Positions 3,083 to 27,904 of a stretch of 32,593 nt of DNA are shown here, in pieces. Under the pieces are notes generated by a model. The model had not been told where the DNA came from. It saw only the letters and a program-made list of their open reading frames with translations, and made no database searches. The stretch spans positions 1 to 32,593 of the forward strand of contig JANRJA010000046.1 in the NCBI GenBank assembly GCA_033764315.1, in the 5' to 3' direction. The position numbers and the translations under genes are program-made. Numbering within the stretch: the stretch's first letter is position 1; the number at the start of each line of letters is the position of its first letter. Source of the DNA: Oculatellaceae cyanobacterium bins.114 (GTDB lineage: Bacteria > Cyanobacteriota > Cyanobacteriia > Elainellales > Elainellaceae).

Positions 3083-4024
3083 TTAGACGAATACAAAAGC
3101 ACGAGATGTCAGGCTGACATTAGCAGCATTAACCCCTGCCAAAACTGCCACCAACTCTGATTCTCCATCGGCAGAGAGATAGATTCCTGTACCACTTGGC
3201 ATTCCAGTTGCTGAGACAGCCCCTAGTGTGTAGTCAGTGGCAACACCAGCCAATTGAATCCGATCTTCTCTTCTAAAATCTGTAATCACAGCATAGTCTA
3301 GATCACCCGCTTCGGCATAGAAGACGGCGGCAGTGTCACCGGGAGCAGCAGAGCCTCCTAACACAAAGGTGTCTCTACCTTGCCCACCCGTGAGAGTATC
3401 CACTTGCGGCACAATAGAGTTTTCGGGGTCTGCCAATGGGTCTTCTTCAGGCAGCATTCCGGGGTCTGGCATCAACGGATCCTCTCCTGGATTCATTGGA
3501 TCGCCTGTTGGAGGAACTCCTGCTGGGGGAACTCCTGGAGGAGCCATTGGCGGAGCATTGGGGGGTTCCATGTCCAAAGCGGCTGCATAGCCAACGAGGA
3601 TATCATTACCCTGTCCACCCAACAGAGTGTCATTGCCTACACCTCCATTGAGGATATCTTTGCCATTGCCACCGCTAAGCAGATCATCTCCTTCATCACC
3701 CATCAGGATGTCATTGCCGGTGCCACCCTCCAATCTGTCATTGCCTAATCCACCCATCAAATTGTCATTGCCAACCCCACCCGACAGTTGGTCGTCACCT
3801 TCTCCACCTTCCAATCTGTCATTACCTTCATCACCCATCAAAATATCGTTGCCAAGTTCACCTATCAGGATGTCATTGCCGCCACGACCCTTAATTGTGT
3901 CATCTCCTAAGCCACCTCTGATAGCATCAATTTGCATGCCACCGGTGAGAATATCATTTGCATCGGTGCCAAGGAGAGGTGGTCTCGGGCGACGGGTTTC
4001 ACGAGAATTTTGATTTGGTTTCAT
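3083..4024 (-). CDS. RTX/hemolysin-type Ca2+-binding repeat protein
   Basis: A dozen or more GGxGxDxLx nonapeptides, a Pro-rich insert, and a C-terminal DTFVLG...DYAVITDF...DRIQL region. ATG at 4024 has GGAG 6 nt upstream. Confidence 0.88.
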   Translation of the reverse strand: MKPNQNSRETRRPRPPLLGTDANDILTGGMQIDAIRGGLGDDTIKGRGGNDILIGELGNDILMGDEGNDRLEGGEGDDQLSGGVGNDNLMGGLGNDRLEGGTGNDILMGDEGDDLLSGGNGKDILNGGVGNDTLLGGQGNDILVGYAAALDMEPPNAPPMAPPGVPPAGVPPTGDPMNPGEDPLMPDPGMLPEEDPLADPENSIVPQVDTLTGGQGRDTFVLGGSAAPGDTAAVFYAEAGDLDYAVITDFRREDRIQLAGVATDYTLGAVSATGMPSGTGIYLSADGESELVAVLAGVNAANVSLTSRAFVFV

Positions 4025-4344
4025 TTGTTTCTCCAATTCGTAAACAGGGTTTTTGGTAAACCAAATCTAACGAATTGAATGGAATGAGACATCGAGAATT
4101 ATCCATAGAAATAATTTTATTTTTGCTATGTTTTTAAGAGCTAAATGGGGTGAAAGTGCGGATAATTTTCTGCAAAAACTGCATCCGGATCAGCTTTTTT
4201 TTAGAACCCCGCAATATTACGAATAATGAGTTCATGACTTGGATAAATTTAAGCTTTAGAACCTTAGTAAATGCCGTCCAAATACTGAGAGACAGCAAAT
4301 TTGTTAAGACCCAACTGGAAAGATCGTCAATCATTAAGCCCATT

Positions 4345-4695: not shown

Positions 4696-6135
4696 ATGAT
4701 TGTTGAGCTACAAAAGGTGCTATCGACCTTAGACATTCCTGCGAATTGGGTTGGTTTGCGAGCCGTAAAGGAGGCGATCGCTTATCGAGCGGTACGAGAT
4801 GGGTTGCCCCAAGACAACAGCAAATCTGCCAATCAAGGGGTAATGGTAGAAGTGCTTGTGAATGGTCAGATCGGGTATAGTGCAGTCAACTCTTGGCAAC
4901 CTGAGCGAATTCGACAAGCAGCTACCGTTGCCTATCAACAGGCATTAGCTGCCAGTCAATGGACAATTCATCCAATGACGATCGCTGCCCGTCCTAAAGT
5001 GGTTGGGCAATACACTTCCCCTTTTTTGAAGCCATTTGATGTGCTTACAGCAGGAGAAGTGAATGAGTTGTTGGTGCGCCTCTGCCAAACCCTCAAAGTA
5101 TCGGATCAGATTGTGCAGACCAATGCTGTGGCAATGACCAATGAAACTGAGTTTTGGTTTGTCAGCAGTAACGGCTCAGAGGTTTATCAGAAGTTTTTGC
5201 TATTGGAGACGCATTTTGGTGCCACGGCTCAAGAAGGGGCGATCGTGCAACAGCGCAGCAATAACGGATACTTGGCGCATTGCTATCAAGGAGGCTGGGA
5301 ATTGTTTCCAGAGCCAGATCTGTGGGAACGAGCACAGCAAATTGGTGAACAAACCCTGGAGTTACTGACAGCGGAGGAGTGCCCTACTGCAACTACAACC
5401 CTAGTTCTAGCTCCCGATCAGATGATGTTGCAGATTCACGAAAGTGTAGGACATCCGCTGGAACTTGATCGCATTTTAGGGGATGAGCGCAATTATGCAG
5501 GCGGTAGCTTTGTTAACCTCTCTGATTTTGGGCAGCTTTCTTATGGGTCAAAGCTGATGAACATTACCTTTAACCCCGCTGTGTCTGGAGAATTTGCCAG
5601 CTATCAGTTTGATGACACAGGTGCACCCGCCACACAGGAATACTTGATTCGAGAAGGAGTTTTGTTGCGCGGGTTAGGTAGCTTAGAGAGCCAAGCCAGA
5701 GCCAACGTTCCAGGAGTAGCCTGTGCACGAGCATCGTCGTGGAACCGTCCGGCGATCGATCGGATGGCAAACCTCAATTTGGAAGCAGGGAGAGACTCCC
5801 TTGAAGACATCATTCGCAATATTGACTACGGCGTTTATATGGAGTCCAACCGTTCCTGGTCGATTGATGATCAACGGTATAAGTTTCAGTTTGGTTGTGA
5901 GTACGCCAAGTTAATTGAGCATGGCGAACTCACTAAAACCTTGCGCAATCCTAACTATCGGGGTACAACCCCTGAGTTTTGGCACAGCCTCATTCGAGTT
6001 GGCAATAATGAAACCTGGCAAATCTATGGCACTCCCTACTGCGGCAAGGGAGAGCCTAATCAAGCCATTCGGGTGGGTCATGGTGCACCCGTTTGTGCCT
6101 TTGCGGGAGTCGAAGTGTTTGGGGGCGGGGAATAA
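4696..6135 (+). CDS. tldD: TldD family metalloprotease subunit
   Basis: HESVGHPLELDR (HExxxH), YQFDDTG, RASSWNRPAIDRMANL, and CGKGEPNQ. Confidence 0.92.
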   Translation: MIVELQKVLSTLDIPANWVGLRAVKEAIAYRAVRDGLPQDNSKSANQGVMVEVLVNGQIGYSAVNSWQPERIRQAATVAYQQALAASQWTIHPMTIAARPKVVGQYTSPFLKPFDVLTAGEVNELLVRLCQTLKVSDQIVQTNAVAMTNETEFWFVSSNGSEVYQKFLLLETHFGATAQEGAIVQQRSNNGYLAHCYQGGWELFPEPDLWERAQQIGEQTLELLTAEECPTATTTLVLAPDQMMLQIHESVGHPLELDRILGDERNYAGGSFVNLSDFGQLSYGSKLMNITFNPAVSGEFASYQFDDTGAPATQEYLIREGVLLRGLGSLESQARANVPGVACARASSWNRPAIDRMANLNLEAGRDSLEDIIRNIDYGVYMESNRSWSIDDQRYKFQFGCEYAKLIEHGELTKTLRNPNYRGTTPEFWHSLIRVGNNETWQIYGTPYCGKGEPNQAIRVGHGAPVCAFAGVEVFGGGE

Positions 6136-6136
6136 G

Positions 6137-7480
6137 ATGAATCCGGATTTAGCAGAATTAGAAGCCAGTTTTAACCAATTAGTGGCAGCATTGCTGGCAG
6201 AACTCAACCCAGGTGAACACTTGACACTCCGTTTGACCGGGGAGCAAAGCCAATTTGTCCGGTTTAATCATGCCAAGGTCAGACAAACAGGTCTTGTGAC
6301 AGATTGTCAGATTCATCTGACGCTGATGTCTGAGCAACGAACCGCTTATTATGATTTTCCGCTGACGGGGAACTGGCAGACCGATTGGCAACAGGCGCGA
6401 TCGTCTCTCCAGGAGTTGCGTCGAGAATTACCACAGTTACCCATCGATCCCTATCTCGTTTTGCCAACGGGTCATGCTGTAAGTCGGGAGATTCATACGG
6501 GGCAGTTGTTGCCTCCTAATGAAGTTGCGGCAACGGTTTTAACTCCTGTAGACGGGCTAGATTTCACAGGCATTTATGCAGGTGGTGTGCTGTTGCGGGC
6601 CTATGCTGACTCTGTTGGGCAAAAACATTGGTTTGCGACAGATTCTTTTTCGTTGGACTATTCCATCTTTACGGCATCAGGACAGGCTCTCAAAGGCACG
6701 TTTGCAGGCAGTGATTGGAATGCAGAGGCTTATGCTGCAAAGTTAGCAGATGCGAGGGGGCAACTCGATCGCCTCGATCAACCCCCTAAGTCCATCGCAA
6801 AGGGACACTATCGCACCTATTTAGCACCCGCGGCGATCGCTGAGATTGTCGCCTATCTTGCCTGGGGCACCCTCAGCGAAGCGGCGATTCAACAAGGAAA
6901 TAGTGGGTTACGACTGCTGCAATTGGGTGAGAAGCAGTTATCTCCACTGTTTACGTTAAGAGAAAACTTTCAATATGGGCTTGTGCCCCGCTTTAACGGC
7001 TGGGGAGAGGTAGCACCCCTGACATTGCCCGTGATCGAATCTGGAAAATTGGTCAACACGTTGATCAACTCCCGCACGGCAAAAGAGTATGGCAAAGCCG
7101 CCAATGGAGCAGACAGTGAAGAATCGTTGCGATCGCCCGAAGTGATCCCAGGGACGCTCGACCCGGCAGATATTCTCAAAACACTTGGCACAGGGTTATA
7201 TCTCTCTAATTTGCACTACCTCAACTGGAGCGATCGCGCCACGGCTCGGATGACGGGAATGACCCGCTATGCCTGTTTTTGGGTCGAAAACGGAGAAATC
7301 GTTGCCCCAATTGAAAATTTGCGCTTTGACGAAAGCCTATATCGCTGTTTTGGGGAAAACCTGGTTACCTTAACCCGTACTCAAGAATTTGTGCCAAATG
7401 TAGAAACCTACGGCTACCGTTCACTGGGCGGAACATGGGTGCCTGGGATGGTAGTTGATGACTTTACCTATACCCTTTAG
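6137..7480 (+). CDS. TldE/PmbA family subunit
   Basis: ATG 1 bp after the tldD stop. Motifs EQSQFVRFNHAKVRQTG and LHYLNWSDR...MTGMTR...APIENLRFDES; no HExxxH. The ORF-track start at 5915 overlaps tldD and is rejected. Confidence 0.88.
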   Translation: MNPDLAELEASFNQLVAALLAELNPGEHLTLRLTGEQSQFVRFNHAKVRQTGLVTDCQIHLTLMSEQRTAYYDFPLTGNWQTDWQQARSSLQELRRELPQLPIDPYLVLPTGHAVSREIHTGQLLPPNEVAATVLTPVDGLDFTGIYAGGVLLRAYADSVGQKHWFATDSFSLDYSIFTASGQALKGTFAGSDWNAEAYAAKLADARGQLDRLDQPPKSIAKGHYRTYLAPAAIAEIVAYLAWGTLSEAAIQQGNSGLRLLQLGEKQLSPLFTLRENFQYGLVPRFNGWGEVAPLTLPVIESGKLVNTLINSRTAKEYGKAANGADSEESLRSPEVIPGTLDPADILKTLGTGLYLSNLHYLNWSDRATARMTGMTRYACFWVENGEIVAPIENLRFDESLYRCFGENLVTLTRTQEFVPNVETYGYRSLGGTWVPGMVVDDFTYTL

Positions 7481-10655: not shown

Positions 10656-12437
10656 ATGACACAGTCGAATCTTTTAGAACTGGCAAAACAGGGTGATCCA
10701 ACGGCGATCGCCACCATGATGAATCAACAGCTTCAGCCAAAGGGCATCACAGCTACGACAGATTTGCTGCCTGGGAGGTGCCTGCAAGTCGTTTTGGAAT
10801 CTGCCCAGGCTCTCAATCGACAGGCACTCACAACCTTTGTTGAAAAGGGGTTAAAAAATCTGGGGGTGCGAACTCTGGATTCAGTCAAAATCATTGGTCG
10901 GCAAATCGGCTCCAGTGAGCCCGCCTGGATTCAAGACATTGGCATGGCAGCGGTGTCGCCCATGTCAAACACTGAACCGTTTCCTGAGGCGGTTCCTCCT
11001 CGTGTCGTCACTCCACCACCGCCACCTCCCAATCGAGGAAGCACACCGATCGTCCCTTTAGCCGGCACTGATGCTTTGATAAGCAAGGTTGAACCGAGCA
11101 CCGATGCCGCAGCTCTACACGACTTCCATGACAGCAGATTCCCAAATGCATCCCCTGACAATGGAGACGAGCTGCCTAATTACTCCCCCATTCCGGGTGC
11201 TTATCGCCCTCTAGAGGCTGACAATGCTCTGTTACTCAATGACTCAGATCTTGAGCTAAGAGGCACCCATGCCCTGGATTACCCAGATCATCCCTTAGAA
11301 GAGTCAGATGACTATGACTATGGTGATGACTACGATGTCATGCCGGGCGGATCGCATGCATTACATTATCCTGACGATCCACTGGATGACCCTGAAGATT
11401 ATGGCGACGACTATGATGAAGGATTTGTCGTCAGCCCTAGTTTTAACACAAGTCAGACAGACGACTCTCTAACACTGGATGACTATGACGATAACTATGA
11501 TACGGGAGTTGTAGTTGGCAGCCGAGTAGATGACCGTCAGTTAAACGACCTGTCAGAAGGGGAAGAGCCAGAACAAAGCAGTGCTTATATTCCTCCGACT
11601 TCACGAGACGTGGCTCCCATAGAGGAGGAATATAGCCCAATTCCTTGGACAGCTTTGATTGTGTCACTGGTTGCCACCTGGATTGTTGGCTTGGTCGGGT
11701 ATGCCCTCTGGTCAGGCGCAGCGAACCGAACGGCGCAGCAACCCACTCCTGGTGTTGCTCCTGCTTCTGCTCCTCCAGCGAGTCCTACAGTGCAAGCGAA
11801 TGTGCCTGCATCACCAGGAACACCTGCCAGTCCAGCCGCCAGTCCCCCAGGATCAAGCCCTGCGACTTCACCCAGTCCAGTCGCTTCGGCAAACCCGGCA
11901 CTGCAATTTACCCCGACTCAGGCAAGCCCAACAACTCCTGCTAGTCCATCCCCACAAGCCAGTGCCTCACCAGCCGCTAGCCCATCTGCTCTACCCAGCC
12001 CTACGACTGGAGCGACTTCACAGGCGACTCAAGCCAACCTCAGTGCAGCCCCTGCCCCTCCAGCGATCGCCTGTCGTCCAGTTCCATTTGGGGCAAACTC
12101 AGGCCCCGTCGAGTTGAGCAATTTGGGGTTTGATACATCAATTGCCGATGCTGATGGTCATTATGTGGTCGGTTGTATTACCAATCACAGTGATCAGGCG
12201 ATCGCCAAACTAACGATCTCGTTTCAGGGGCGATCGACTCAAAATCAAGCCGTGTCTCAAACAGGTTCAACCGATTTGACCTTTGCTAATTTGCGACCCC
12301 GTCAGGCCGTTCCCTTTAGAAGCCTGTATACGGTCAACCCAGAGATCAACGCCATGACCATCACCTCTATTTCTTGGATATCAGCTGGCTCAGCCCAACC
12401 CCGACAAGTCCAGGTCAACTTTCCGCTCAGACGCTAA
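10656..12437 (+). CDS. Bitopic membrane protein: N-terminal cyanobacterial domain, acidic Tyr-rich region, single TM, Pro/Ser/Ala linker, C-terminal FxLYD/DUF3426-like beta domain
   Basis: LLELAKQGDPTAIA...LQPKGI; D/Y-rich middle; TM IPWTALIVSLVATWIVGLVGYALW; C-terminal YVVGCITNHSDQ...ANLRPRQAVPF. Confidence 0.75.
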   Translation: MTQSNLLELAKQGDPTAIATMMNQQLQPKGITATTDLLPGRCLQVVLESAQALNRQALTTFVEKGLKNLGVRTLDSVKIIGRQIGSSEPAWIQDIGMAAVSPMSNTEPFPEAVPPRVVTPPPPPPNRGSTPIVPLAGTDALISKVEPSTDAAALHDFHDSRFPNASPDNGDELPNYSPIPGAYRPLEADNALLLNDSDLELRGTHALDYPDHPLEESDDYDYGDDYDVMPGGSHALHYPDDPLDDPEDYGDDYDEGFVVSPSFNTSQTDDSLTLDDYDDNYDTGVVVGSRVDDRQLNDLSEGEEPEQSSAYIPPTSRDVAPIEEEYSPIPWTALIVSLVATWIVGLVGYALWSGAANRTAQQPTPGVAPASAPPASPTVQANVPASPGTPASPAASPPGSSPATSPSPVASANPALQFTPTQASPTTPASPSPQASASPAASPSALPSPTTGATSQATQANLSAAPAPPAIACRPVPFGANSGPVELSNLGFDTSIADADGHYVVGCITNHSDQAIAKLTISFQGRSTQNQAVSQTGSTDLTFANLRPRQAVPFRSLYTVNPEINAMTITSISWISAGSAQPRQVQVNFPLRR

Positions 12438-14514: not shown

Positions 14515-15081
14515 ATGACTGCTCAAATCCTAGTTGAGAAAAAGAAATTAGCCAATCCACCCTTAAAGCTCCACTACCTCGGCGATCGCGTTTTGCGGCA
14601 ACCGGCCAAGCGCATCACGAAAGTAGACGATGAGATTCGCGAGTTAGCACGGCAGATGTTGCAAACCATGTATAGCGAAGATGGAATTGGTTTAGCAGCA
14701 CCTCAAGTGGGGGTCAACAAGCAGTTGTTGGTGGTTGACTGTGAATTAGACAACCCAGCCGCTCCTCCCTACATTTTGATCAACCCTGCCGTTACCAAAA
14801 AGAGTGCTGACACGTGTGTGATTCAAGAAGGGTGTCTCAGCATCCCCGGCGTGTTTATTGATGTGACCCGCCCTGAAGTGATTGAAGTGTCCTACAAAGA
14901 TGAAAACGGGCGACCTCAAAAGCTAGTCGCAGAGGGTTTGTTGGCTCGTGTGATTCAACATGAGATTGATCACCTCAATGGAGTCATGTTTGTAGATCGA
15001 GTTGATAATACTTTAGTTCTCAACCAAGAGTTGACAAAGTATGGGTTTTCAGTTGAAGCTGTAAAGCCGATTGACGCATAA
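14515..15081 (+). CDS. def: Peptide deformylase
   Basis: GIGLAAPQVG, EGCLS, QHEIDHLNG motifs. Confidence 0.96.
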   Translation: MTAQILVEKKKLANPPLKLHYLGDRVLRQPAKRITKVDDEIRELARQMLQTMYSEDGIGLAAPQVGVNKQLLVVDCELDNPAAPPYILINPAVTKKSADTCVIQEGCLSIPGVFIDVTRPEVIEVSYKDENGRPQKLVAEGLLARVIQHEIDHLNGVMFVDRVDNTLVLNQELTKYGFSVEAVKPIDA

Positions 15082-15450: not shown

Positions 15451-16833
15451 ATGACCGAACCTGTTGCTGAAACTCCTGTTCTCAGGCAACTGCCCTCGGT
15501 GAATGCAGCCAGTTCAGCAGATGTGACCTATCCCATCACAGAGGAGATGACCATCGGGCGTGATCCCCGCTGTCAAATCGTGCTGGACTCAATGGTTTAT
15601 GGTGGCGTTTCGCGTCAACACGCCCAAGTCAGTCTCGTCACCGGAAGTTCTAACACCTGGCAACTCTGTGATCTCAGTAGTGCTAACGGCACCTTTTTAA
15701 ACGGTCAGCGATTACAGGGATGTCAAGTCCTATATCCGGGCGATCGCATTGCGTTGGGGCAAAATGGCCCCGAATTTATCTTTGAACAACAAGCTGTGTC
15801 ACGGTCAACGAGTGTTGAGAATGCATCACCAGACCCAGTCCTCCCCTCAGTAGCAGCATTTGCAGCCACCCGCCGCCCCGGAGAACCGTTTCCTAACAGC
15901 GTTCCCAATGATGTCACGTTAAGCCAACTGTTTCCCATCGTCTCAACTGGGCGAGAGCTGACCCAAAAAGCCTATCTGGTTCCGGCGATTTTAACGATCG
16001 CATTTGTGATCTTGATGTTTATCGCCGTTGGCACCCCCGTCTTCTTTAACTTGTTACTAGCCGCCTATATTGCGGGTGCAGCCTACTATTTTGTGTATCA
16101 GCTCTGTGGCAAACGCAAACCGTGGTGGTTGTTAGTCTCGGTTGGCATTATGACCATGCTGTTATTGGTCAGCCCGGTGCTAGAGCTGTTTATTGTTGTA
16201 TTTCGCGGCATCTTACCCGGAGCCATTCCAGAGGGTGAACCCTCCGGTAATTTCTTTAATCTGTTGGTAGGCATGTTTTTTGGCGCAGGACTGATGGAGG
16301 AGTTGCTCAAAGCCCTCCCCGTCTTGCTGGTCTATTTTATTGGCACTCAACTGCGATCGCCTCTCAGGGAACGGATCGGAGTCTGGGAGCCATTGGATGG
16401 AATCTTATTGGGGACGGCTTCAGCAGTGGGTTTCACCTTGCTAGAGACGTTAGGACAATATGTACCCGCGATCATCAACGATGTCACCCTCCAGGCCGGA
16501 GAAGGAACTGGAGAACTAGTCGGGTTGCAACTGCTGATCCCTCGCGTTCTCGGCTCGATCGCCGGACACATGGCATACAGCGGCTATCTAGGCTATTTCA
16601 TCGGACTCAGTGTCCTTAAGCCTTCTAAACGGTGGCAAATTTTAGGGGTGGGTTATCTCACAGCGGCGGGGCTTCACGCTCTGTGGAATGCGACTGGCAG
16701 TATCAGTTTTTTGATCCTGGCAGTCGTTGGTATTTTGTCCTATGCATTTCTGGCGGCAGCAATTCTCAAGGCAAGAGCACTCTCACCCACGCGATCGCAA
16801 AATTTTGCAACTCGGTTCTCAAGATTGCCTTAA
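15451..16833 (+). CDS. FHA domain + PrsW-family intramembrane glutamic/metalloprotease
   Basis: FHA: TIGRDP...VSRQHA...DLSSANGTFLNG. PrsW motifs: EELLK, GFTLLE, GHMAYSG, LHALWN. About 8-9 TM segments. Confidence 0.9.
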   Translation: MTEPVAETPVLRQLPSVNAASSADVTYPITEEMTIGRDPRCQIVLDSMVYGGVSRQHAQVSLVTGSSNTWQLCDLSSANGTFLNGQRLQGCQVLYPGDRIALGQNGPEFIFEQQAVSRSTSVENASPDPVLPSVAAFAATRRPGEPFPNSVPNDVTLSQLFPIVSTGRELTQKAYLVPAILTIAFVILMFIAVGTPVFFNLLLAAYIAGAAYYFVYQLCGKRKPWWLLVSVGIMTMLLLVSPVLELFIVVFRGILPGAIPEGEPSGNFFNLLVGMFFGAGLMEELLKALPVLLVYFIGTQLRSPLRERIGVWEPLDGILLGTASAVGFTLLETLGQYVPAIINDVTLQAGEGTGELVGLQLLIPRVLGSIAGHMAYSGYLGYFIGLSVLKPSKRWQILGVGYLTAAGLHALWNATGSISFLILAVVGILSYAFLAAAILKARALSPTRSQNFATRFSRLP

Positions 16834-16842
16834 ACGGCTCAA

Positions 16843-17457
16843 TTAGGATTGGTCGGTTGAGAGTTGAGCAATCGCGTAACGGGCGATCGCTAAACTCAGT
16901 CTCGCTTGCTCAATACTAGATAGCTCATCCCACGGTGTATGGCGTAACGAGTTGAGCGTTGTCTCAAGCGTCTCAGTGTCGGCTCCTCGCATAGCATAGG
17001 CAAAGGGACGGGCCAACACCTGCAAATCATCTTCTCCCCAACTGGGTAGCAGGTCTTGAACGCACATCACCAGCTTATCGGCTAACGAACTATTAACGGC
17101 TACGACCTGGTGTGCATGCTGCACAATGTCTTCTAAAAACTGTTGAGGGATCTGGGCGGCACATCGTTCAAACAGTTGATTCATCAATGAACGCATTGTC
17201 GTCTGTTCAACAGGTGCAATGGCAGACCATATCTGATCGACATGAGCGGCCAACGCCTTACCTTGAACCGCGATTTCTTCAGCCATCCAACCGGTTGCAA
17301 TCACTTCTTGCTCTAGATCAGCAAAGTAGGCATCTGTGCCCAACTCCGCTGGATTCCAAGGATAGGGTGTATCAGCGTGCAAAATTAATTGCAACAGTTC
17401 TAACTCAGCCTGTGCTTGGAAGGGTAAGAAGGATGGACGGGTCGAATCGCTGGTCAT
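16843..17457 (-). CDS. Hypothetical helical protein, PatU3-like
   Basis: 204-aa ORF directly downstream of the CHAT-FHA gene. Segments PYPWN, IPQQFLEDIVQHAHQVVAVNSSLADKLVMCVQDLLP and WDELSSIEQARLSLAIARYAIAQL resemble the core of PatU3 as recalled from memory. Confidence 0.7.
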   Translation of the reverse strand: MTSDSTRPSFLPFQAQAELELLQLILHADTPYPWNPAELGTDAYFADLEQEVIATGWMAEEIAVQGKALAAHVDQIWSAIAPVEQTTMRSLMNQLFERCAAQIPQQFLEDIVQHAHQVVAVNSSLADKLVMCVQDLLPSWGEDDLQVLARPFAYAMRGADTETLETTLNSLRHTPWDELSSIEQARLSLAIARYAIAQLSTDQS

Positions 17458-17618
17458 AGGGTTACTCCTGAATCATTGCTGGTCCTGATGGACACCGATA
17501 GCTACACCTGAGGGTTTGGTCGTTCCGTAAGGTTTTTTGTAATTTCAGTCAATTGGCGGAGAACGTCAATAAGGGGCAAATAGTGGGTCTGTCTTCGGAT
17601 AGAAACCAAGACACATTT

Positions 17619-19268
17619 TTATCCGTCAATGACAAACTCTAGGGCAGAGCTGTGACCAAATCGGAGCTGAGTTTTAGAGAGCAGGGGCACCTCTTGATGA
17701 TGCACGCGATGCCATCCATCCTGCATTAAAACAAGCGTCCCAAAACGGGAATAGTCTTTCAGGAAATACGTGTGTTGTCCATCAGCACTGGTAAACGAGT
17801 CGCGATAGAAAATTTCAGCGTGAACGCGCGAAACCCCAGGTTCTCGAATCACCAGATCATTGCCTTCACGACTGCCCACTCGCATAATGCCGCCGTGCAC
17901 CTGCCAAGTGCGACTCGGTGAGGTGAGCGATCGCAAGAAAGCCGTTGGAGTTTTGCGCCCAATCCAACTAGGAGAATTTTCAGGGATCTCTGTCACCCCT
18001 TCTGTCATTGGTTTGACCAACTCTCCATTAAATTCAGGATGCATGTAGAGGACAGGCAATGTCCAGGCAGGTTGGTTGAATTTGTAGAGGGTGAGCAAAT
18101 GTTGACGCGCGATCGCCACAGCCTGATCAATCGGGGCACGCTCTGACAACGCCTGAGTAAATTCACGAATAAAACTCAATGCCTCTTGATCGGCGATCGA
18201 GTCTCGCATCCCCAACACCGCTGGCACTCCGTGGTGAATCAACACTTCTGCCAGACTACTACGAGGAATAGCGCGATCGCCATCGTGATCAGGTTGTGCC
18301 CCCCAGCAGGTATTAAACACAGCTAGCTTGACCTGACATCGGGTCAGGACTTGAGCCAATTCTGTGCCATTGAGTGGCGCATTAGGTCTCACAAATAATA
18401 AGCCGCCATCTGGCGCAGGAACGCCATGCCCCGAATAAAACAAAACGTTGTAACTGCCACTTTCCAGTTCATCAATCAACTCTCCAGGAGTGGGTTGCAC
18501 CAGAGTTTTGACCTGGCAGGGAACCGGACTAGAAAAGGCATTTCCTGAGTTAGCATCTGCTGCTGCTTCTAACAGATCTGCCAACATTTTGGCTTCCTGT
18601 TCCAGCTTCAGCAATTTGTCCCCTGTGGGAGTCGCCGCTGGATCATAAACATCCATTTCTTCGTCTTGCCCTAAGACCAACAAGATTTGTAAGGAGTGCT
18701 CAACGCGCAACAAGGGCAGTGCATCAACGTCACTAGTCGTTCGACTAAATAGGAGTTGTTGACTGAGGGAGACAGCCTGCTTCCCCGGTTGGGGTTGCAT
18801 AATCTCCCAGGGAACAGAAATTAAATCTGGATCGCGCACCTCTAACCGAATTCGCAGCGGTTTGCCCTGACCGATGGCAATCCCCTGACTCCGCTCTAAA
18901 CTAATTTGAATGGGGCTTTCGTCAAACAACCAATGCCACAAGTTGACCCCTAAGTTCTGCATCAACAAACCTGTTTTACTGGTCGGTTGCCCCAAGGGTG
19001 GCGTCGCCGGATCAGGAGGCGAGGTAATGGGGCTAATCACCGGTGGAGAGGTACGGGGAAATCGAGGTACGGGCGGCAGACTTCGTATCGAAAACATATT
19101 TTGCCAGTTGTGCCAGGCTTCCGTCAGCAACTGAGTCCAACGGCGATCATGGTGAACATATCCCCCTGGATAAGGAGCTTGTAACACCCAAATCGCATAA
19201 TGATCTGGCTCAGCAGCCGTTAAAGGAGCGATCGCCAGACTTAAGCAAGGACTTTCAGGCAAAAACAT
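17619..19268 (-). CDS. CHAT (caspase/HetF-like) protease with C-terminal FHA domain
   Basis: LISVPWEIM, LFYSGHG (catalytic His), AVFNTCWG (catalytic Cys), GVPAVLGMR...IAD, WTLPVLY. FHA: VGSR...VSRVHAEI...LKDYSRFGT. ATG at 19268 preferred over the ORF-track start at 19292. Confidence 0.88.
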   Translation of the reverse strand: MFLPESPCLSLAIAPLTAAEPDHYAIWVLQAPYPGGYVHHDRRWTQLLTEAWHNWQNMFSIRSLPPVPRFPRTSPPVISPITSPPDPATPPLGQPTSKTGLLMQNLGVNLWHWLFDESPIQISLERSQGIAIGQGKPLRIRLEVRDPDLISVPWEIMQPQPGKQAVSLSQQLLFSRTTSDVDALPLLRVEHSLQILLVLGQDEEMDVYDPAATPTGDKLLKLEQEAKMLADLLEAAADANSGNAFSSPVPCQVKTLVQPTPGELIDELESGSYNVLFYSGHGVPAPDGGLLFVRPNAPLNGTELAQVLTRCQVKLAVFNTCWGAQPDHDGDRAIPRSSLAEVLIHHGVPAVLGMRDSIADQEALSFIREFTQALSERAPIDQAVAIARQHLLTLYKFNQPAWTLPVLYMHPEFNGELVKPMTEGVTEIPENSPSWIGRKTPTAFLRSLTSPSRTWQVHGGIMRVGSREGNDLVIREPGVSRVHAEIFYRDSFTSADGQHTYFLKDYSRFGTLVLMQDGWHRVHHQEVPLLSKTQLRFGHSSALEFVIDG

Positions 19269-19382
19269 GTAAAAAGATAATTTAAAACCCAAATACGATC
19301 AGTTTTTTACCAGTCTATACGGTATCGGGATGCAGGAGAACGAAGGCATAGACTAACTCCAAGGATGAGATCAGATAAAACC

Positions 19383-21839
19383 TTATGAGACAGCTGGCTC
19401 AGAGGTCACCGGAATGGTTGGTCCACCACAGACACCCCGCTCTTGAGGAGTCAGTGTGAGCTTAGGACTCACTAGACGTAATACTTCGGTTTCTTGAATC
19501 CAGCCAGTACCTCCAGGTTGCAACGGCTGGGGAGAGGGCACTGCTGCCGGATTGGGAGAGGGAGGTTCTAGCCCAGTGCCAGTTCCATTAGCAGGAGTTC
19601 CCGTCGGTTGAACAGGGACAGGGGTCACAGGCAAATTGACAAAATTGGAAAAAGCCGGAGAGGGCTCAGGGGCAATAACCGCATTGTCTGGGGTTGAACA
19701 CACTTTCAGTTCTACCCATCGTTCTTGGGGGTTAGTTGCACTGCCTCCTATCACTTGCACAATGCTACCCGACAGCACTGAACTAGCACTGACAATTGGC
19801 GGCTGCAACCCACCTGGTTTAGACAACACAATCATAGTCCCTTGATCTAGGGAACCAGAGGCGGACGGAGGATTGATTTGGAAAAATGAGCCAATGGCTA
19901 ACGGAGTCGATGGGGTAATAGGGGTAGATGATGTCGTAGGGCTAGGTGATGTAGTGGGGCTAGACGATGGGGCAGCCAACGGATTTAATCCAACCAGGCT
20001 ATCTATCCAACCTCGAAACGATAGATTGAGAGCATAGGCTAGCAGGCCGCCGCCACCAATGAGTAAGAGAATACCCAACAGCAACGGAAATACATGAAAT
20101 TTTTTAGTCTGACGAGTCGGTAATACTTGAGTTTTGGCGATCGCTGGAGCCGCTACATTAGAGCTATCCGGAATCATCGTCGTAGCCTCAGAGCCAGTTA
20201 GAGGCAGAGACTTAACTAGTGCTGGTGGTGTGTCTCGGGCTGACTGATTGGCAACTACCTGAATGTGAAATAGCCCCACTGTTACGTTATCGTGCCCATT
20301 CCGGGTGTTGGCCAGGTTAACCAATTGTTGGCTCACCGCACCGACCTCGGCTTTAGCATCTAACAAAGGCAATAGCGTCGTGTCCCAGTTTTCTTCAACG
20401 CGATCATTATCGCTTAACCCATCAGAGCACAACAAGAAGACAGTGTCTTCATCCAAAACAAAACGCTGAACCGTAGGATGCAAAACTGCAGAGGAACCCA
20501 TCCCCAAAGCTTGCACTAGAGAGCCGGCACTGGGCTGCTGCAACGCCTCTCGATAGGAACTGTAACCCAGCCGCACTTCTCGTGAGGCCACATCATCATC
20601 TTGAGTCACTTGACGGCATCCGTAGTGATTGATCCAATAGGCACGGCTATCCCCTACATGGATAATGTAAAGCTCATGGGCACGCACCAACCCCATGACT
20701 AACGTAGTGCCCATCCGCTGTCGATCAAACCGCTGTTCACTGTCATTGCGTTGGCTAATTAGATCATTTGCGACACATACTGCTTTCTCCAGTGCTAGTG
20801 TCAGCGATGAAGCATCTAAGGTCTCCAGAGCAAGGGCTTGCACCTGCTGCCGCACCGCCTGAATCGCCAGATTCGATGCTACATCACCCCCTTGATGTCC
20901 ACCAATGCCATCACACACAATAACGAGGACATTATCTAAAGCAGATTGAAGCGTATGAGTCGTGACAGTGCCACCAGGAGGATAACAGGCATCTTCGTTA
21001 CGTTGCCGACTGGGTCCTTGGTCGGTGCGGGTCGCTATATGAATTTGGTAGGAGAGCGATCGCCCCACTTGAGTGAGTAGCCCATCTAGTTGTCCGATCA
21101 ACTGTTCCGCATTGCGAATTTGCCCCTGTATTAATTGTTGGCAAACCTGAGTTAACCCTTTGACAATCTCAGGTCGAGCCTGACTGACCCATGTTGACCA
21201 CAGCTGACCTAACTGAGCTAGAGTCAACGTTTCCGCTTTGTCTGATTTGTCTGACCGCAGCTCTAGTAACCGCAGTAGTGCCCCCTCAACGCGCACAAGC
21301 TCTGGAGCCAACACACTAGAGACAGCCTGTTGACTAGCCAGTGGGTGCCAGAGATGGGCAATCTGCCAAAGCCAGTTAAGTTGTCGAATGGCGGGTGCTT
21401 CTTGCCAAACGTCGGTTAAGGCAGGTAACAACTGTGGCTCAACCACTTCAGCGGTCGGCTGAGATGCACCATCTAACACCAAACCAGAGCTATCAAACGC
21501 CGCCTGATCGAGCAAAACCAACGGAGAGGAATTTGCCAGAGCCACTACATCATAGATTTGAGGCACATGGATTCGGTAGGGAGATAACCTCAGATAGGCT
21601 ACAAATTCTGATGGGATCTCCGTTGGAGCAGCGGAATAAAGACCGGGCTTAGTATCTAAAAAAAGTCGAGGGCTTTTACATAGATAGCGATCGCCCAATA
21701 TTTCTCCAGAACGAAATCGCCCAACCCCCTCACCCACCGCCCATAAATAGTGGTGCGGCAACAGAGTGCGACACTTCTGGCAGAATTTATAGCTCTCTGG
21801 ATTAGGGGTTTGACAGGTGTAGTTAGGGCAATAAAGCAT
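19383..21839 (-). CDS. PP2C/PPM Ser/Thr phosphatase with N-terminal Zn ribbon and kinase-like region, TM helix and Pro-rich extracytoplasmic tail (PrpJ-like architecture)
   Basis: CPNYTC...CQKC; PP2C motifs RQRNEDA, VCDGIGGH, MGTT, HVGDSRAY, LLCSDGLSD, GHDNVT; TM FPLLLGILLLIGGGGLLAYAL. Confidence 0.9.
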   Translation of the reverse strand: MLYCPNYTCQTPNPESYKFCQKCRTLLPHHYLWAVGEGVGRFRSGEILGDRYLCKSPRLFLDTKPGLYSAAPTEIPSEFVAYLRLSPYRIHVPQIYDVVALANSSPLVLLDQAAFDSSGLVLDGASQPTAEVVEPQLLPALTDVWQEAPAIRQLNWLWQIAHLWHPLASQQAVSSVLAPELVRVEGALLRLLELRSDKSDKAETLTLAQLGQLWSTWVSQARPEIVKGLTQVCQQLIQGQIRNAEQLIGQLDGLLTQVGRSLSYQIHIATRTDQGPSRQRNEDACYPPGGTVTTHTLQSALDNVLVIVCDGIGGHQGGDVASNLAIQAVRQQVQALALETLDASSLTLALEKAVCVANDLISQRNDSEQRFDRQRMGTTLVMGLVRAHELYIIHVGDSRAYWINHYGCRQVTQDDDVASREVRLGYSSYREALQQPSAGSLVQALGMGSSAVLHPTVQRFVLDEDTVFLLCSDGLSDNDRVEENWDTTLLPLLDAKAEVGAVSQQLVNLANTRNGHDNVTVGLFHIQVVANQSARDTPPALVKSLPLTGSEATTMIPDSSNVAAPAIAKTQVLPTRQTKKFHVFPLLLGILLLIGGGGLLAYALNLSFRGWIDSLVGLNPLAAPSSSPTTSPSPTTSSTPITPSTPLAIGSFFQINPPSASGSLDQGTMIVLSKPGGLQPPIVSASSVLSGSIVQVIGGSATNPQERWVELKVCSTPDNAVIAPEPSPAFSNFVNLPVTPVPVQPTGTPANGTGTGLEPPSPNPAAVPSPQPLQPGGTGWIQETEVLRLVSPKLTLTPQERGVCGGPTIPVTSEPAVS

Positions 21840-21964: not shown

Positions 21965-22312
21965 TCAAAACACGTTGCCCTCAGCCGCCACTCTGGGTAA
22001 TCCAAGGCTATAGTTGCGAACTCGGCTTTGCAGGTTGTATGAGAGGGTGCCTGCTTGTAAGAGCGATCGCACAAAGTGTTCTAAATCAGAACCGATCCGC
22101 CGCATATTATAGTCTGTCAGATCAGCTCCTTCATAAGCCTCAACCAGCACATCAAACTTGCGATAGACCTGCTGAAGTGCCGCATCATTCCAAATCAACT
22201 CGTTGTCGGGGTCAACATCGAGTGTCAATTTATCAGCACTAGCAACCAATTCGTCGTTCTCAACCTCAGCAGTAAAAATGCGAATGTGACGAGTTGTAGA
22301 CTTCAGTAGCAT
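21965..22312 (-). CDS. ndhM: NAD(P)H-quinone oxidoreductase subunit M (NDH-1)
   Basis: [16 protein letters not shown]...TLDVDPDNE...[25 protein letters not shown]...NYSLGLPRV. Confidence 0.93.
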
Positions 22313-23708: not shown

Positions 23709-26312
23709 ATGGCGAGAGCTCAACAGGGAAACACACTGCGGACGGCAAGGACTACGGTGGTCGGTCCGACAGCCAGAACATTACGAGGAGCTCTTTCTGC
23801 CACAGATGGCAATGACTTTTGGAAGTTTACTCTGGCGGTTCGTAGCACCTTTAACCTCAATCTAACCGGCATTGGCAGAACGGCGAATGCAGATGCCTTG
23901 CTGCTTAACAGTCGAGGAGGCACCATTCGGGCGTTAAGAAGCCCTAAAAACCGACCAGAGCGGCTCTCCAACCTATCCCTTGACCCTGGCACTTATTACG
24001 TTCGAGTCCAACGCCGCACTGGCACAACCCGATATGCCCTCAGTTTGGCGGCCTCTCCGATCTCTACTCCGACTCCGACTCCAACCCCCGGTGTGACTCC
24101 GACTCCAACTCCTGGGGTCACTCCGACTCCTAGCCCTACTGATAATGGGGGCAACTCATTTGCCGCATCCTCAGCCTTAGTACCGGGCATTGTTCCAGCC
24201 GTTGACTTTAACACCCGCAGCCTCACCGATTTTGTCGGAGATGTTGATCCACAAGACATCTTTAGCTTTAGCCCCACCACCGCTGGCAATTTGTCATTGC
24301 AATTGACCGGGTTAACTGCCGATGCCAGTATTCAGCTATTTGATGCCAACCAGAGCTTGATTGCCTCCGGGGATGCCAACGACAGCCTATTGCAAAACAT
24401 TGCACAACCCGGCGGCACTTATTACATTCGAGTTTTCCAAGCAGCAGCAGGTAACAACACCAACTACACTCTTAACTTGGCGTTGACCCCAATCGATACC
24501 GTTGGCGATACGGCGGCAGCAGCAACCGTGATTAACGATTTGGTCGCCACAACACCGCCCGCCGCCCGTCAACCAACAGCCGTTCGCACTGAGTTTGTCA
24601 GCGGCAGTGATATCGATTTTTATCGCTTTGACTTAACCGCTCAAAACTTTGTCGGCATTGACTTGTTGAACCAGAGTGGCAATGCTGATCTGGAACTCTA
24701 TAAAGACAATGCGGGTACACCCACTTTATTGTTGAGTTCAACACGGGGGGTAGGTGCTCCTGAGCAAATCGGTGGAACTCTAAGCGCAGGCACTTACTAC
24801 ATTCGAGTAGCCGCCGGAGCAGGCGCAACAGGGTCTCCCTACAGCTTCACCATGTATGCTGAATCAACTTTGGGACTCCCCACTATTACTCGTGACATTG
24901 CCTTTGGCGCAACGGGTGGGCAGGCCAGTTCACAACCCCGTGACATCACAAATGTGAGTGGTACGGTCTACTTTGCAGCCAACGAACCTGGAATCGGTGC
25001 GGGTCTGTGGAGAAGCACCGGGGGAACAGCAGGGGGCAACTTAGATCAGACGGTTAAAATTCGTAACTTTAGTAGCCTTTCTAACTTTGTTGCTGCTGGA
25101 AACAACCTTTATTTCGTAGCCGATGATGGGCAGAGTGGTACGGAACTCTGGAAGTATGACGGTAATACTGCCATTCAGTTGACTAACAACCCTGGAAGTG
25201 CCTTTGTCACCAACCTCACGGCTGTTGGCGATTTCCTCTACTTCACCCTGTCTGATGTGAATGCACTCACCGATCAACGATTGTGGCGCAGCAACGGGAC
25301 AGCCGTCGGAACAGCCGAAGTTGGAGATCCAAATACAGCGATCGCTGAGGCGGGAGTACTTCCCAATAATCTGGTTGCCGTTGGCAATGATCTGTATTAC
25401 GCCGCCACTGACTCAGCGACAGTTAATAACAAGGGCAGAGAGGTCTGGAAGATTACTGGTGCGGGTACAAACACCCCTGGCACAGCCGCGATTGTGCTTG
25501 ATCTAGAACCGGGTTCTAGCGGTTCTGCTCCAACTCGCCTAACTGCGATCGGCACGAATCTCTTCTTTGTCGCTGAAACAATTGGAGATAGCGTTGGTAC
25601 AGAATTGCGCCGACTTGACAGCAATGGCACCCTCACAACCTTTGATGTCAGCGCAGTCAATGATCCGTTTGGGGATTCTGTAAACCCGATCGCGACTGCC
25701 CCCCTCGTCTGGAACATTGTAGAAATGGGTGGCAATGTCTACTTCGCCGCCGATGGTGGAGACGCCAAAGGTGAAGAGTTGTGGCGAGTGCCTGTGAATG
25801 GAGCTGCTGGCAGTGGAACTCGTGTCACTGATATCCGGTTAAATACGGGTAGCTCTAACCCCCGTAACCTGACGGTGCTCAACAATAAGCTGTTCTTCTT
25901 GGCAGATGATGGCACGAACGGGGTTGAGTTGTATGTGTATGATGGTACGACCACAACCTTGCTCACGGGAGGTCGCCCAGCCGATGCCCCTGATATTCAA
26001 GAACTGACCACATCAGGCACCAACCTCTACTTCACGATGGGGTCTGGAAGCGGTAACTCGGCAACGGGTCGAGAACTGTGGGTCAGCGATGGCACGGTCG
26101 TTGGAACTGAGATCGTCTTTGATATTCGGCCTGGTGGGACGGTTAACCCTGGTACGCCAGGTGATCCTACTGCGGATCCACCGATTCCGCCTACCCCTCA
26201 AACGTTTACAGCTAACACCTCTAACCCAACTGATTTGACCGATGCTAGCGGCAGATTATTCTTTGCAGCAGACAACGGACTGAATGGGGTGGAATTGTGG
26301 ACGTTGATTTAA
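23709..26312 (+). CDS. Surface/extracellular protein: three PPC-type beta-sandwich domains, PT linker, ELWxxDGT beta-propeller repeats
   Basis: Repeated D-x-Y/F-x-F...ADxxL...GTYYxRV modules. LYFVADDGQSGTELWKYDG, GRELWVSDGTVVGT, LFFAADNGLNGVELW. Confidence 0.88.
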   Translation: MARAQQGNTLRTARTTVVGPTARTLRGALSATDGNDFWKFTLAVRSTFNLNLTGIGRTANADALLLNSRGGTIRALRSPKNRPERLSNLSLDPGTYYVRVQRRTGTTRYALSLAASPISTPTPTPTPGVTPTPTPGVTPTPSPTDNGGNSFAASSALVPGIVPAVDFNTRSLTDFVGDVDPQDIFSFSPTTAGNLSLQLTGLTADASIQLFDANQSLIASGDANDSLLQNIAQPGGTYYIRVFQAAAGNNTNYTLNLALTPIDTVGDTAAAATVINDLVATTPPAARQPTAVRTEFVSGSDIDFYRFDLTAQNFVGIDLLNQSGNADLELYKDNAGTPTLLLSSTRGVGAPEQIGGTLSAGTYYIRVAAGAGATGSPYSFTMYAESTLGLPTITRDIAFGATGGQASSQPRDITNVSGTVYFAANEPGIGAGLWRSTGGTAGGNLDQTVKIRNFSSLSNFVAAGNNLYFVADDGQSGTELWKYDGNTAIQLTNNPGSAFVTNLTAVGDFLYFTLSDVNALTDQRLWRSNGTAVGTAEVGDPNTAIAEAGVLPNNLVAVGNDLYYAATDSATVNNKGREVWKITGAGTNTPGTAAIVLDLEPGSSGSAPTRLTAIGTNLFFVAETIGDSVGTELRRLDSNGTLTTFDVSAVNDPFGDSVNPIATAPLVWNIVEMGGNVYFAADGGDAKGEELWRVPVNGAAGSGTRVTDIRLNTGSSNPRNLTVLNNKLFFLADDGTNGVELYVYDGTTTTLLTGGRPADAPDIQELTTSGTNLYFTMGSGSGNSATGRELWVSDGTVVGTEIVFDIRPGGTVNPGTPGDPTADPPIPPTPQTFTANTSNPTDLTDASGRLFFAADNGLNGVELWTLI

Positions 26313-26683: not shown

Positions 26684-27904
26684 ATGCTATTGCATTCTGC
26701 TCAAAGTGCCTCACCTCAACCAATTTCAGGCGATCGCACTGGCAATACAGTAAGACAAGCTAGACCTATCACCCTGCGAGCAGGCACAACTTCCATTCGA
26801 GAGTGGGTTGGGGGAGGCGATCGCTTTGATATTTATCGGTTTCGCTTAACCATTCGCAGTAGCCTTAATCTGTCACTGACTGGGTTAAACGCCAATGCTG
26901 ATCTAGCGTTGCTCAATCGCACAGGGAAAGTAATCCACCGTTCTACTCGGTTGGGTCGAGCGAAAGAAACAATACAACAGGTTTTGGAAACCGGAATGTA
27001 TTACATCCGGGTTTTTGCAAGACATGCTGCAACTCGCTATCGATTGGTTGCGGTGAAAACAGCGATCGCCGCTGATCTTCCGCCTTCTCCCGTTCCTCCC
27101 GATTCAGTCATTCCAACCACTCCGACTCCGACTCCGACTCCTGACCCAATCCCAAATCCAGTTCCTACAAGCCTCTTTAACATTCAGTTTGACTATCGGT
27201 TTGACACAAATCAGTGGTTTACCCCCGAACGGAGGCGTGTGTTAGAAGCAGCGGCTGATCTTTGGGAAACGATTGTTCAAGATGAGTTTGAGGCGATCGC
27301 AGTAGGTACTCGACTGAACGTGATTAATCCTCAAACCGGTATAAGCGTGCAACTGAACGCAGATTATGAGATTGACGATCTAGTTGTATTTGTTGGGGCA
27401 AGGTCTTTTGATGGGGCTGATGGAACCCTTGCCACAGGAGGCCCATCTGGATCTTGGATGGTGGGTAGCCGTTTAGAGACTCGTTATCAGGGAGCAGATT
27501 TTGAGCCGTGGACTGCTAGCTTGGGGTTTGATCTTGCAGAAAACTGGTTTTTTGATCCCACTCCTACAACAGCCGATGATGTGCCACTGAGCCAACCCGA
27601 TTTTTTGACGATCGCCCTACACGAGTTGGGGCATGCGTTAGGAATTGGAACATCAAAAGCCTTTGACAACTGGGTCAGTCAAGGGCAATTTATCGGAACT
27701 CACGCTAGAGCACAAAACAGTGGCAACCCAATTCCGCTAACGTTTGATGGGCATGTGCAGGATGGATTTATTGCCAGCAATGTAGGAATTGAGGCGTTAA
27801 TGGCTCCTAGATTCAGGTTTGGCACACGTCAAAAACAGACCCGTCTAGATATTTCTTTTTTAGAAGATATCGGTTATTCGGTTAGCTACAGCTCAACCCT
27901 ATAG
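26684..27904 (+). CDS. PPC domain + PT linker + metzincin-type zinc metallopeptidase
   Basis: GTLATGGP, IALHELGHALGIG (HExxH), a distal His (DGHV) and ALMAP Met-turn, C-terminal LEDIGY. Confidence 0.85.
   Translation: MLLHSAQSASPQPISGDRTGNTVRQARPITLRAGTTSIREWVGGGDRFDIYRFRLTIRSSLNLSLTGLNANADLALLNRTGKVIHRSTRLGRAKETIQQVLETGMYYIRVFARHAATRYRLVAVKTAIAADLPPSPVPPDSVIPTTPTPTPTPDPIPNPVPTSLFNIQFDYRFDTNQWFTPERRRVLEAAADLWETIVQDEFEAIAVGTRLNVINPQTGISVQLNADYEIDDLVVFVGARSFDGADGTLATGGPSGSWMVGSRLETRYQGADFEPWTASLGFDLAENWFFDPTPTTADDVPLSQPDFLTIALHELGHALGIGTSKAFDNWVSQGQFIGTHARAQNSGNPIPLTFDGHVQDGFIASNVGIEALMAPRFRFGTRQKQTRLDISFLEDIGYSVSYSSTL

Follow-up and report, generated by a model that had tools for sequence, protein, structure and literature searches.

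A CHAT-FHA protease and a putative PatU-like partner form a co-inherited gene pair in cyanobacteria, with a probable link to a pseudokinase-PP2C phosphatase

The subject of this work is a cluster of four genes at positions 15,451 to 21,839 of a 32,593-nucleotide stretch of Oculatellaceae cyanobacterium bins.114 (assembly GCA_033764315.1, contig JANRJA010000046.1), which at its full length is referred to here as the window. The genes encode a membrane PP2C phosphatase, a CHAT protease ending in an FHA domain (CHAT-FHA), an orphan protein of 204 amino acids (aa) and a PrsW protease with an FHA domain of its own (FHA-PrsW). Our main finding is that CHAT-FHA and the 204-aa protein are firmly linked, and that firm linkage is limited to these two. 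We give a probability of roughly 55% to the reading that the functional core is a CHAT protease and a PatU-like partner duplicating the HetF-PatU3 pair, with a probable phospho-input from the PP2C and with FHA-PrsW as an optional associate. The evidence supports a HetF/PatU-type pair as a real unit and a loose association of FHA-PrsW with it, and it supports no defined two-protease cascade. Phospho-input through the PP2C, which carries a putative pseudokinase domain, is probable but unproven, and a phospho-linked switch of the HetF/PatU type is plausible.

The linkage of the two genes was seen first of all in their distribution. The 204-aa protein is encoded at 16843-17457 on the minus strand, 161 bp downstream of the CHAT-FHA gene on the same strand, which extends over 17619-19292 when read from a TTG at 19292 (557 aa) or over 17619-19268 when read from an ATG at 19268 (549 aa); the latter is likely the true start because orthologues begin there. 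We used an even sample of the class, 141 cyanobacterial genomes each at least 90% complete, and found each of the two genes in 71 of them: 70 genomes have both, one has only the 204-aa gene (G100), one has only CHAT-FHA (G056) and 69 have neither. Among 41 relatives the two genes occur in the same 36 genomes. They adjoin each other in 52 of the 70 genomes holding both, with gaps of 118-724 bp, and at least one of the cases counted as non-adjacent (G050) has both genes at contig ends. The distribution of both genes follows families and is not patchy, and the cluster genes, each present in single copy, keep a conserved order among housekeeping genes. HetR was found in 77 of the 141 genomes, and 4 of the 71 genomes with CHAT-FHA lack it.

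Complex prediction gave a second line of evidence. With full-length CHAT-FHA (alignment of 46 rows) and the 204-aa partner (87 rows) as input, three runs scored 0.73, 0.74 and 0.73, versus 0.00 for the best of three controls; pairwise complex prediction had been suggested in the initial annotation, and for this pair it came out positive. Of 157 solved complexes, 116 attained the mark used for such scores, as did 2 of 215 mismatched pairs; these rates are a rough guide only, since custom alignments were used. The three runs share at least 91% of their contacts, and the pLDDT (predicted local distance difference test score) of the partner is at least 76. On the protease, the predicted interface is made up of residues 57-61, 97-100, 279-281, 319-321, 354-363 and 396-400 (549-aa numbering); on the partner it comprises residues 140-159, 180 and 182, which cover near-invariant columns of the family. 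The protease segments 279-281 and 319-321 bracket His281 and Cys321, and in the models the most conserved motif of the partner faces this dyad. We found no sequence relative of the CHAT part among solved structures. The partner model likewise had no Foldseek match in the PDB at E <= 0.001, and its best Z in a wide VIA-align search was 6.1, a range common for helical proteins. With no solved relative for the CHAT part and no recognisable match to the fold of the partner, it is unlikely that the prediction reproduces a known complex. These predictions support binding of the 204-aa protein at the active site of CHAT-FHA.

The protease itself has a Pfam CHAT domain (PF12770, 71.2 bits versus a cut-off of 24) at residues 117-404 and an FHA domain (PF00498, 40.0 bits) at residues 471-546, so ordered that an N-terminal conserved region and a Pro/Thr-rich linker precede the CHAT domain and the atypical FHA domain stands at the C-terminus. 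His289 and Cys329 (557-aa numbering; His281 and Cys321 in the 549-aa form) are invariant in all 46 orthologues aligned. We take them as the catalytic pair because they lie in the caspase-like motifs GHG and NxCWG and by comparison with Cys295, reported as catalytic in HetF (PMC9457339). No transmembrane segment was found in CHAT-FHA by hydropathy scan. The HetF equivalog model NF045509 scored 145.7 bits against a cut-off of 1200 and was covered only over model positions 68-388. A second CHAT protein, in open reading frames (ORFs) of 850-1000 aa with about 33-37% identity over the CHAT part, was present in nearly all relatives searched. Judging by sequence, CHAT-FHA is a paralogue of HetF. As a separate observation, in genome G031 (3.3 Mb) the CHAT-FHA gene at G031:C1:1352900-1362400 is split over three frames (query residues 13-54, 56-473 and 476-556), and it is either decaying or carrying sequencing errors.

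For the 204-aa protein, Pfam and NCBIfam gave no family at E values up to 10. Its family comprises 254 clusters at 50% identity, nearly all of about 200 aa, and the near-invariant positions are Y32-P33-W34, P104, D144, L145, A149, R150, P151, M156, R157, W176, L179, S180 and A192. The model of the protein is all-helical, with nine helices and a pLDDT of 87.8, and no hydrophobic transmembrane segment was found by hydropathy scan. When the ORFs of the genome were searched with the family profile, we obtained a 347-aa ORF (C65:3198-4238) directly downstream of HetZ (C65 4234-5376, minus strand; NF037963, 669.6 bits versus a cut-off of 550). This is the position of patU, and on that ground we identify the ORF as PatU and the two genes as a hetZ-patU pair (C65:3198-5376). 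The profile (A1) also matched the hetZ-adjacent ORF of genome G030 (E 2.9e-6).

Profile comparison then supported the label 'PatU3-like' that the 204-aa protein had been given from the sequence at the outset. Comparison by hhalign of the 204-aa family with PatU alignments of 30-31 sequences gave probabilities of 77.1% (E 2e-5), 73.8% and 73.1% (E 3.1e-5), matching partner residues 99-200 to PatU 146-256, about 100 residues. The controls were far lower: 3.9% for the reversed profile, at most 1.1% for 20 column shuffles and at most 6.4% for 20 block shuffles. Among the structure neighbours in the ESM Atlas, the second and third are clusters named PatU, matched over residues 88/89-204; these clusters have no Pfam family in common. 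The docking motif lies in the aligned blocks, where VLARP..AYAMR of the partner stands against VLasP----RS of PatU; Arg157 is aligned to a near-invariant Arg of PatU, and Arg157-Gly158 to a near-invariant Arg-Ser. The 204-aa gene follows the CHAT-FHA gene and not hetZ. With moderate confidence, the 204-aa protein appears to be a remote relative of PatU and not a member of that family. PatU-like ORFs were found in 35 of the 41 relatives; the six in which none was found are the five that also lack CHAT-FHA, plus G036. Since G036 has CHAT-FHA and the 204-aa gene and no HetF-like or PatU match, the two pairs are independent.

One candidate for PatU3 was discarded. DUF3038 had been taken to correspond to PatU3, an unsupported equation, and the two DUF3038 proteins of the genome proved unlike the 204-aa family (hhalign 0.2%). 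These two proteins, at G000:C102 and G000:C119, have 215 and 205 aa, and after one of their genes comes a 383-aa Pro/Ser-rich ORF with a 4-bp overlap between its start and the DUF3038 stop. The HetZ of this genome, which is of the non-heterocystous type, gave weak matches to sigma-70 region 4 and to ECF (extracytoplasmic function) sigma models; a 2026 PNAS paper is said, going by its title, to concern a sigma factor of unique structure that acts in the differentiation of heterocysts.

Upstream of CHAT-FHA, with a gap of 114 bp and on the same strand, lies the gene of the membrane PP2C (19383-21839, minus strand, 818 aa). Its protein matches Pfam PP2C_2 (PF13672, 51.6 bits, residues 298-508) and PP2C (PF00481, 32.9 bits), with a match to SpoIIE too, and NCBIfam PRK14559 (284 bits) and Stp1 (161.8 bits), both under their cut-offs. 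The metal-binding motifs NED, DGxGG, GDSR, DG and DN are invariant in 39 of 39 sequences. A zinc ribbon of four cysteines (C4, C9, C20 and C23, invariant in 35 of 35 sequences) is followed by the putative pseudokinase domain at about residues 30-265, the PP2C domain at 272-524, a single transmembrane segment at 580-608 by hydropathy scan, a Pro/Ser/Thr-rich linker and an extracytoplasmic region. Residues 1-275 were modelled with a pLDDT of 92, and in a Foldseek search all top matches of this model were kinases or pseudokinases, with probabilities of 0.96-1.00 and E values of 1.7e-4 or weaker, the best being the kinase-homology domain of Rv3910 (MviN), PknG and Pan3. As judged from the sequence alignment, a conserved catalytic Lys, HRD or DFG was not found. 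From model and alignment taken together, we interpret the N-terminal domain as a dead kinase, that is, a pseudokinase. The GAF-PP2C phosphatases HltA and PhsP were also considered; they belong to a different PP2C group (PMC9430166, PMC12344097) and have no bearing on this gene.

We propose that in this soluble CHAT paralogue the membrane anchor and periplasmic part of HetF, with its tetratricopeptide repeats (TPRs), would have been replaced by the C-terminal FHA-like domain. The protease would bind the PatU-like protein encoded just downstream, so that the partner segment D144...R150-P151...M156-R157 sits over the catalytic His and Cys. Since HetF degrades PatU3, the partner would by analogy most likely be a substrate dedicated to this protease, and a cut, perhaps at Arg157-Gly158, may switch off or release its regulatory activity. 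The membrane PP2C with its putative dead kinase domain probably supplies a phospho-dependent input. In one option the phosphorylated pseudokinase would be a docking site for FHA domains, as MviN is for FhaA in mycobacteria; in the other, the PP2C would erase a phosphothreonine mark by which the protease is recruited or activated. These marks may be read by FHA-PrsW as well, which would not be an obligate member. We infer the cleavage, its site, all the phospho-dependent steps and the physiological output. A more specific version is that a second, phospho-regulated proteolytic switch of the HetF/PatU type exists in the HetR-bearing clade, in which the FHA-like domain brings CHAT-FHA to the membrane by docking on the phosphorylated pseudokinase of a PrpJ-type phosphatase, the partner is cut there at Arg157-Gly158, a division or differentiation regulator is released or destroyed and FHA-PrsW reads the same mark. 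In this detail the scheme is speculative, and we think it rather unlikely.

A number of observations count against the favoured reading, and the first of these concern the pair itself. A predicted interface is not the same as binding, and the cleavage of the partner is an extrapolation from the PatU likeness. That likeness has moderate probability (73-77%), and the template-modelling scores of the two Atlas neighbours named PatU, 0.46 and 0.44, both lie under 0.5. Partner residues 142-157 are helical in the monomer model; since substrates are normally bound extended, an inhibitor or regulatory subunit fits this as well as a substrate does. Finally, in genome G100 the PP2C, 204-aa, FHA-PrsW and def genes stand in order (G100:C16:50000-62000) with a 1.1-kb gap at the position of CHAT; CHAT-FHA is absent from the locus, and none was found elsewhere in that genome at E <= 1e-55. 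G100 is a natural protease-less variant.

These points bring in the possibility that the 204-aa protein is a stoichiometric inhibitor or chaperone which plugs the CHAT active site, in the style of securin on separase, with the real substrates elsewhere. The predicted interface covers the catalytic dyad with a segment that is helical on its own, and one-to-one co-inheritance in an operon-like pair is what would be expected of such a subunit as well. In the same segment, an invariant-like Pro151 comes directly after near-invariant Arg150, and a Pro in this position makes the bond a less favourable cleavage site for many proteases. Aravind and Koonin in 2002 reportedly grouped CHAT with separase in the caspase-haemoglobinase fold. 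Against this, the homologous PatU3 is reported to be degraded by HetF and not to inhibit it (PMC9457339), and the retention of the 204-aa gene in G100 in the absence of its protease suggests that the protein has its own role. We consider an inhibitor somewhat improbable and the dedicated substrate of the favoured reading the better account of the pair.

Other points against the favoured reading concern the phospho-input. We scored the FHA domain of CHAT-FHA against the residues taken as the canonical phosphothreonine-binding set (GR, SxxH, NG) and found two of the five missing: 29 of 46 sequences keep the Arg that follows the invariant Gly, the window's copy having Ser at this position, and in 44 of 46 an aromatic residue (Tyr, Phe or Trp) stands in place of the Asn of the NG turn. 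The Gly (46 of 46), the Ser (46 of 46) and the His (45 of 46) are kept, and the domain is best described, as a sequence, as an atypical FHA. A Pfam scan of the window found no Ser/Thr kinase gene. The link of the PP2C to CHAT-FHA rests on gene order and is unproven, and PP2C-like matches at E <= 1e-110 occur in 24 genomes without CHAT, in counts that pool orthologues and paralogues. The gene ndhM, which encodes NDH-1 subunit M and has no evident functional tie to the phosphatase, directly precedes a PP2C-like gene in 35 of 90 genomes, on the same strand as that gene; it stays beside the PP2C-like gene in G030, G056 and G090, where CHAT lies elsewhere. In one family (f1) synteny extends over the whole block ftsX-def-PrsW-204-CHAT-PP2C-ndhM-DUF4230, and much of the clustering there is accordingly inherited.

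From these observations it could be argued that only CHAT-FHA and the 204-aa protein cooperate, and that the PP2C and FHA-PrsW are inherited neighbours whose targets lie elsewhere, for instance in the cell envelope or in NDH-1. The adjacency of ndhM and PP2C is about as common as that of PP2C and CHAT (CHAT-FHA adjoins a PP2C-like gene in 44 of 66 genomes) and survives relocation of CHAT; it could reflect old synteny or a real link between phosphatase and NDH-1. The independent persistence of a def-PrsW adjacency, the synteny of the wider block in f1 and the PP2C-like genes in genomes without CHAT all fit this explanation too. It has to contend with the contiguity of PP2C, CHAT and the 204-aa gene in 36 of 70 genomes over many family labels (16 of these without an adjacent PrsW), and with the mechanistic precedent for an FHA protein beside a pseudokinase in MviN-FhaA. 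We rate this explanation as on the unlikely side.

FHA-PrsW is encoded on the plus strand (15451-16833, 460 aa), and its stop is separated by 9 bp (16834-16842) from the stop of the 204-aa ORF, with which it converges. The ORF coordinates of the four genes, together with the Pfam and NCBIfam matches, confirmed this arrangement and the domains given in the initial annotation. FHA-PrsW has a PrsW domain (PF13367, 123.4 bits, residues 223-437), joined by a linker to an FHA domain (64.9 bits, residues 34-103), and several transmembrane segments from residue 170 on by hydropathy scan. All 25 sequences aligned keep EExxK, H373 and HxxxN, and the FHA domain is canonical, with conserved GR, SRxH and NGT columns. 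From the conservation of their catalytic residues, CHAT-FHA, PrsW and the PP2C all look active.

The distribution of FHA-PrsW is another matter. It adjoins the 204-aa gene in 28 of the 57 genomes having both; 33 genomes carry it and lack the 204-aa gene, and in 14 with the 204-aa gene it was not found. At 20 loci it stands apart from the CHAT module or belongs to a genome without that module, and there its only recurrent neighbour is def, encoding peptide deformylase, upstream on the same strand in 6 of the 20. Being convergent, FHA-PrsW does not share a transcript with the other three. Its phyletic pattern is independent, and its membership in the module is doubtful. Synteny and phylogenetic profiling of all four genes had been proposed from the start; the CHAT-FHA/204-aa pair stood up to it and FHA-PrsW did not. 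In the window, too, def (14515-15081) immediately precedes FHA-PrsW on its strand.

This bears on the idea, put forward in the initial annotation, that all four genes form one phosphorylation-gated cascade in which the PP2C sets the phosphothreonine state and both FHA proteases release a regulator from membrane to cytoplasm. The expected clustering in other genomes does recur: the four genes are contiguous and in the same order in 20 of the 70 genomes holding both CHAT-FHA and the 204-aa gene, under 7 family labels and, in G038, with different flanks, so that the arrangement is not due to chance. Both proteases have FHA domains and conserved catalytic residues, the FHA domain of PrsW being canonical, and FHA-fused PrsW versions have been classed, in passing, as likely signalling peptidases (Zhang et al. 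2012, PMC3482391). In the Anabaena gene order discussed below, we take alr1728 to be the PrsW orthologue, which is a guess from the order of locus tags. Both alr1728, listed as a Fox gene (PMC4005646), and prpJ (all1731; PMC6161253) are reported to be needed for aerobic N2 fixation. However, the independent pattern of FHA-PrsW, its recurrence only beside def when displaced, its convergent orientation, the lack of an evident PrsW substrate and the atypical FHA domain of CHAT all speak against a shared pathway. A single pathway with two proteases is thus left unsupported, and we regard it as quite unlikely.

CHAT proteases act in some defence systems, and we also considered that the cluster might be an anti-phage or conflict system built on a CHAT protease, like the Craspase of type III-E CRISPR or other caspase-like defence proteases. 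A comparison with PADLOC-DB gave one weak match for the PP2C (E 4.8e-4) and no match for CHAT-FHA, the 204-aa protein or PrsW. The window scan showed no CRISPR or nucleotide-signalling genes near the cluster, and the distribution by families is the opposite of a patchy one. With three of the four proteins unmatched and with single-copy genes in a conserved housekeeping context, a defence role is very improbable.

The remainder of the window adds context. Next to the PP2C gene, 125 bp upstream of it, lies ndhM (21965-22312, minus strand; Pfam NdhM, 177.7 bits), which served here as a synteny control outside the claimed system. Pfam scanning of the window found no sigma or anti-sigma genes. Promoter-like sites numbered 10 versus 7.4 +/- 3.0 expected and terminator-like sites 10 versus 6.9 +/- 2.7 expected, so neither gave a signal. 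Two neighbouring ORFs of the PmbA/TldD metallopeptidase type (4696-6135 and 5915-7480, plus strand) overlap by about 220 bp when read from their first start codons; the start of the second is probably further downstream. On the plus strand, 23709-26312 and 26684-27904 encode two large proteins in which PPC (pre-peptidase C-terminal) domains are combined with Thr/Pro-rich linkers, and on the minus strand 3083-4036 encodes an RTX calcium-binding repeat protein; these three are probably secreted surface proteins. A 593-aa ORF at 10656-12437 (plus strand) matches no Pfam family at E <= 1e-5.

We found no description of the CHAT-FHA/204-aa pair or of the four-gene cluster in the literature searched. 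Within the same scope, no combination of a CHAT and an FHA domain was reported for cyanobacteria, and the work on PrsW and FHA in cyanobacteria was not on this cluster. HetF-PatU3 is the only CHAT protease-substrate pair that has been worked out in cyanobacteria, where it couples cell division to heterocyst differentiation. Here we have a paralogous pair in half of the sampled cyanobacterial genomes, with the partner gene adjacent and an interface predicted at the active site. Such a pair gives a route to the substrate rules of CHAT proteases and to a second proteolytic switch in filamentous cyanobacteria, and it offers a possible function for PrpJ-type phosphatases outside heterocysts. The orphan 204-aa family gains a putative PatU-like relationship and a likely binding partner.

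Several known systems can be compared with this cluster. In Craspase, the TPR-CHAT protease Csx29 of type III-E CRISPR cleaves a substrate of the same operon, Csx30, and thereby frees a regulator. It resembles the present case in having a CHAT protease with a dedicated partner gene alongside, and it differs in that here there is no CRISPR context, no TPR part, no PADLOC match and no solved sequence relative. FHA-PrsW has the conserved EExxK and HxxxN of the metalloprotease PrsW in the PrsW-RsiW system of Bacillus subtilis; unlike the latter it has an N-terminal FHA domain, and its window contains no sigma or anti-sigma gene.

For the PP2C, the closest parallels are mycobacterial and cyanobacterial. 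The phosphorylated pseudokinase of MviN (Rv3910) recruits the FHA protein FhaA, and by analogy with this precedent the pseudokinase of the PP2C may be an FHA docking site. Both have a domain of apparent kinase fold with no catalytic motifs, MviN being the best structural match, and both are encoded beside FHA proteins; the single transmembrane segment and extracytoplasmic tail of the PP2C also resemble those of PstP. In contrast to the MviN-FhaA-PknB module and the fhaA-fhaB-pstP locus, the putative pseudokinase is fused here to the phosphatase, the FHA domains are fused to proteases and the locus has no kinase gene. PrpJ (All1731) of Anabaena, needed for heterocyst glycolipid deposition, is likewise a membrane PP2C, and Jang et al. 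are said, by the title of their 2007 paper, to have placed it in the plasma membrane. The strand pattern of alr1728, all1729, all1730 and all1731 is that of the window, a match that is based on locus tags only. Of these genes, all1729 is described as hypothetical and was once listed as 'filamentous-only' and later removed from the core set (PMC2821919). Since the relatives are Leptolyngbyaceae- and Oculatellaceae-like, the function of the cluster is not heterocyst-specific.

The comparison that fits best is with HetF and PatU3 of Anabaena sp. PCC 7120. HetF is reported to degrade PatU3 through its CHAT domain, with Cys295 as the catalytic residue, and to be anchored in the membrane by a transmembrane segment with TPRs in the periplasm (PMC9457339). 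CHAT-FHA differs from it in having no transmembrane segment and in ending with an FHA-like domain. While patU stands beside hetZ and not beside hetF, the 204-aa gene directly follows that of its protease, and the partner, of about 200 aa, has only some 100 residues in common with PatU of about 350 aa. In both cases there is a CHAT cysteine protease with a His/Cys dyad, the two being about 33-37% identical over the CHAT part, and the partner in the present case appears to be a remote homologue of PatU, predicted to lie in the protease active site. Both pairs are found in largely the same genomes.

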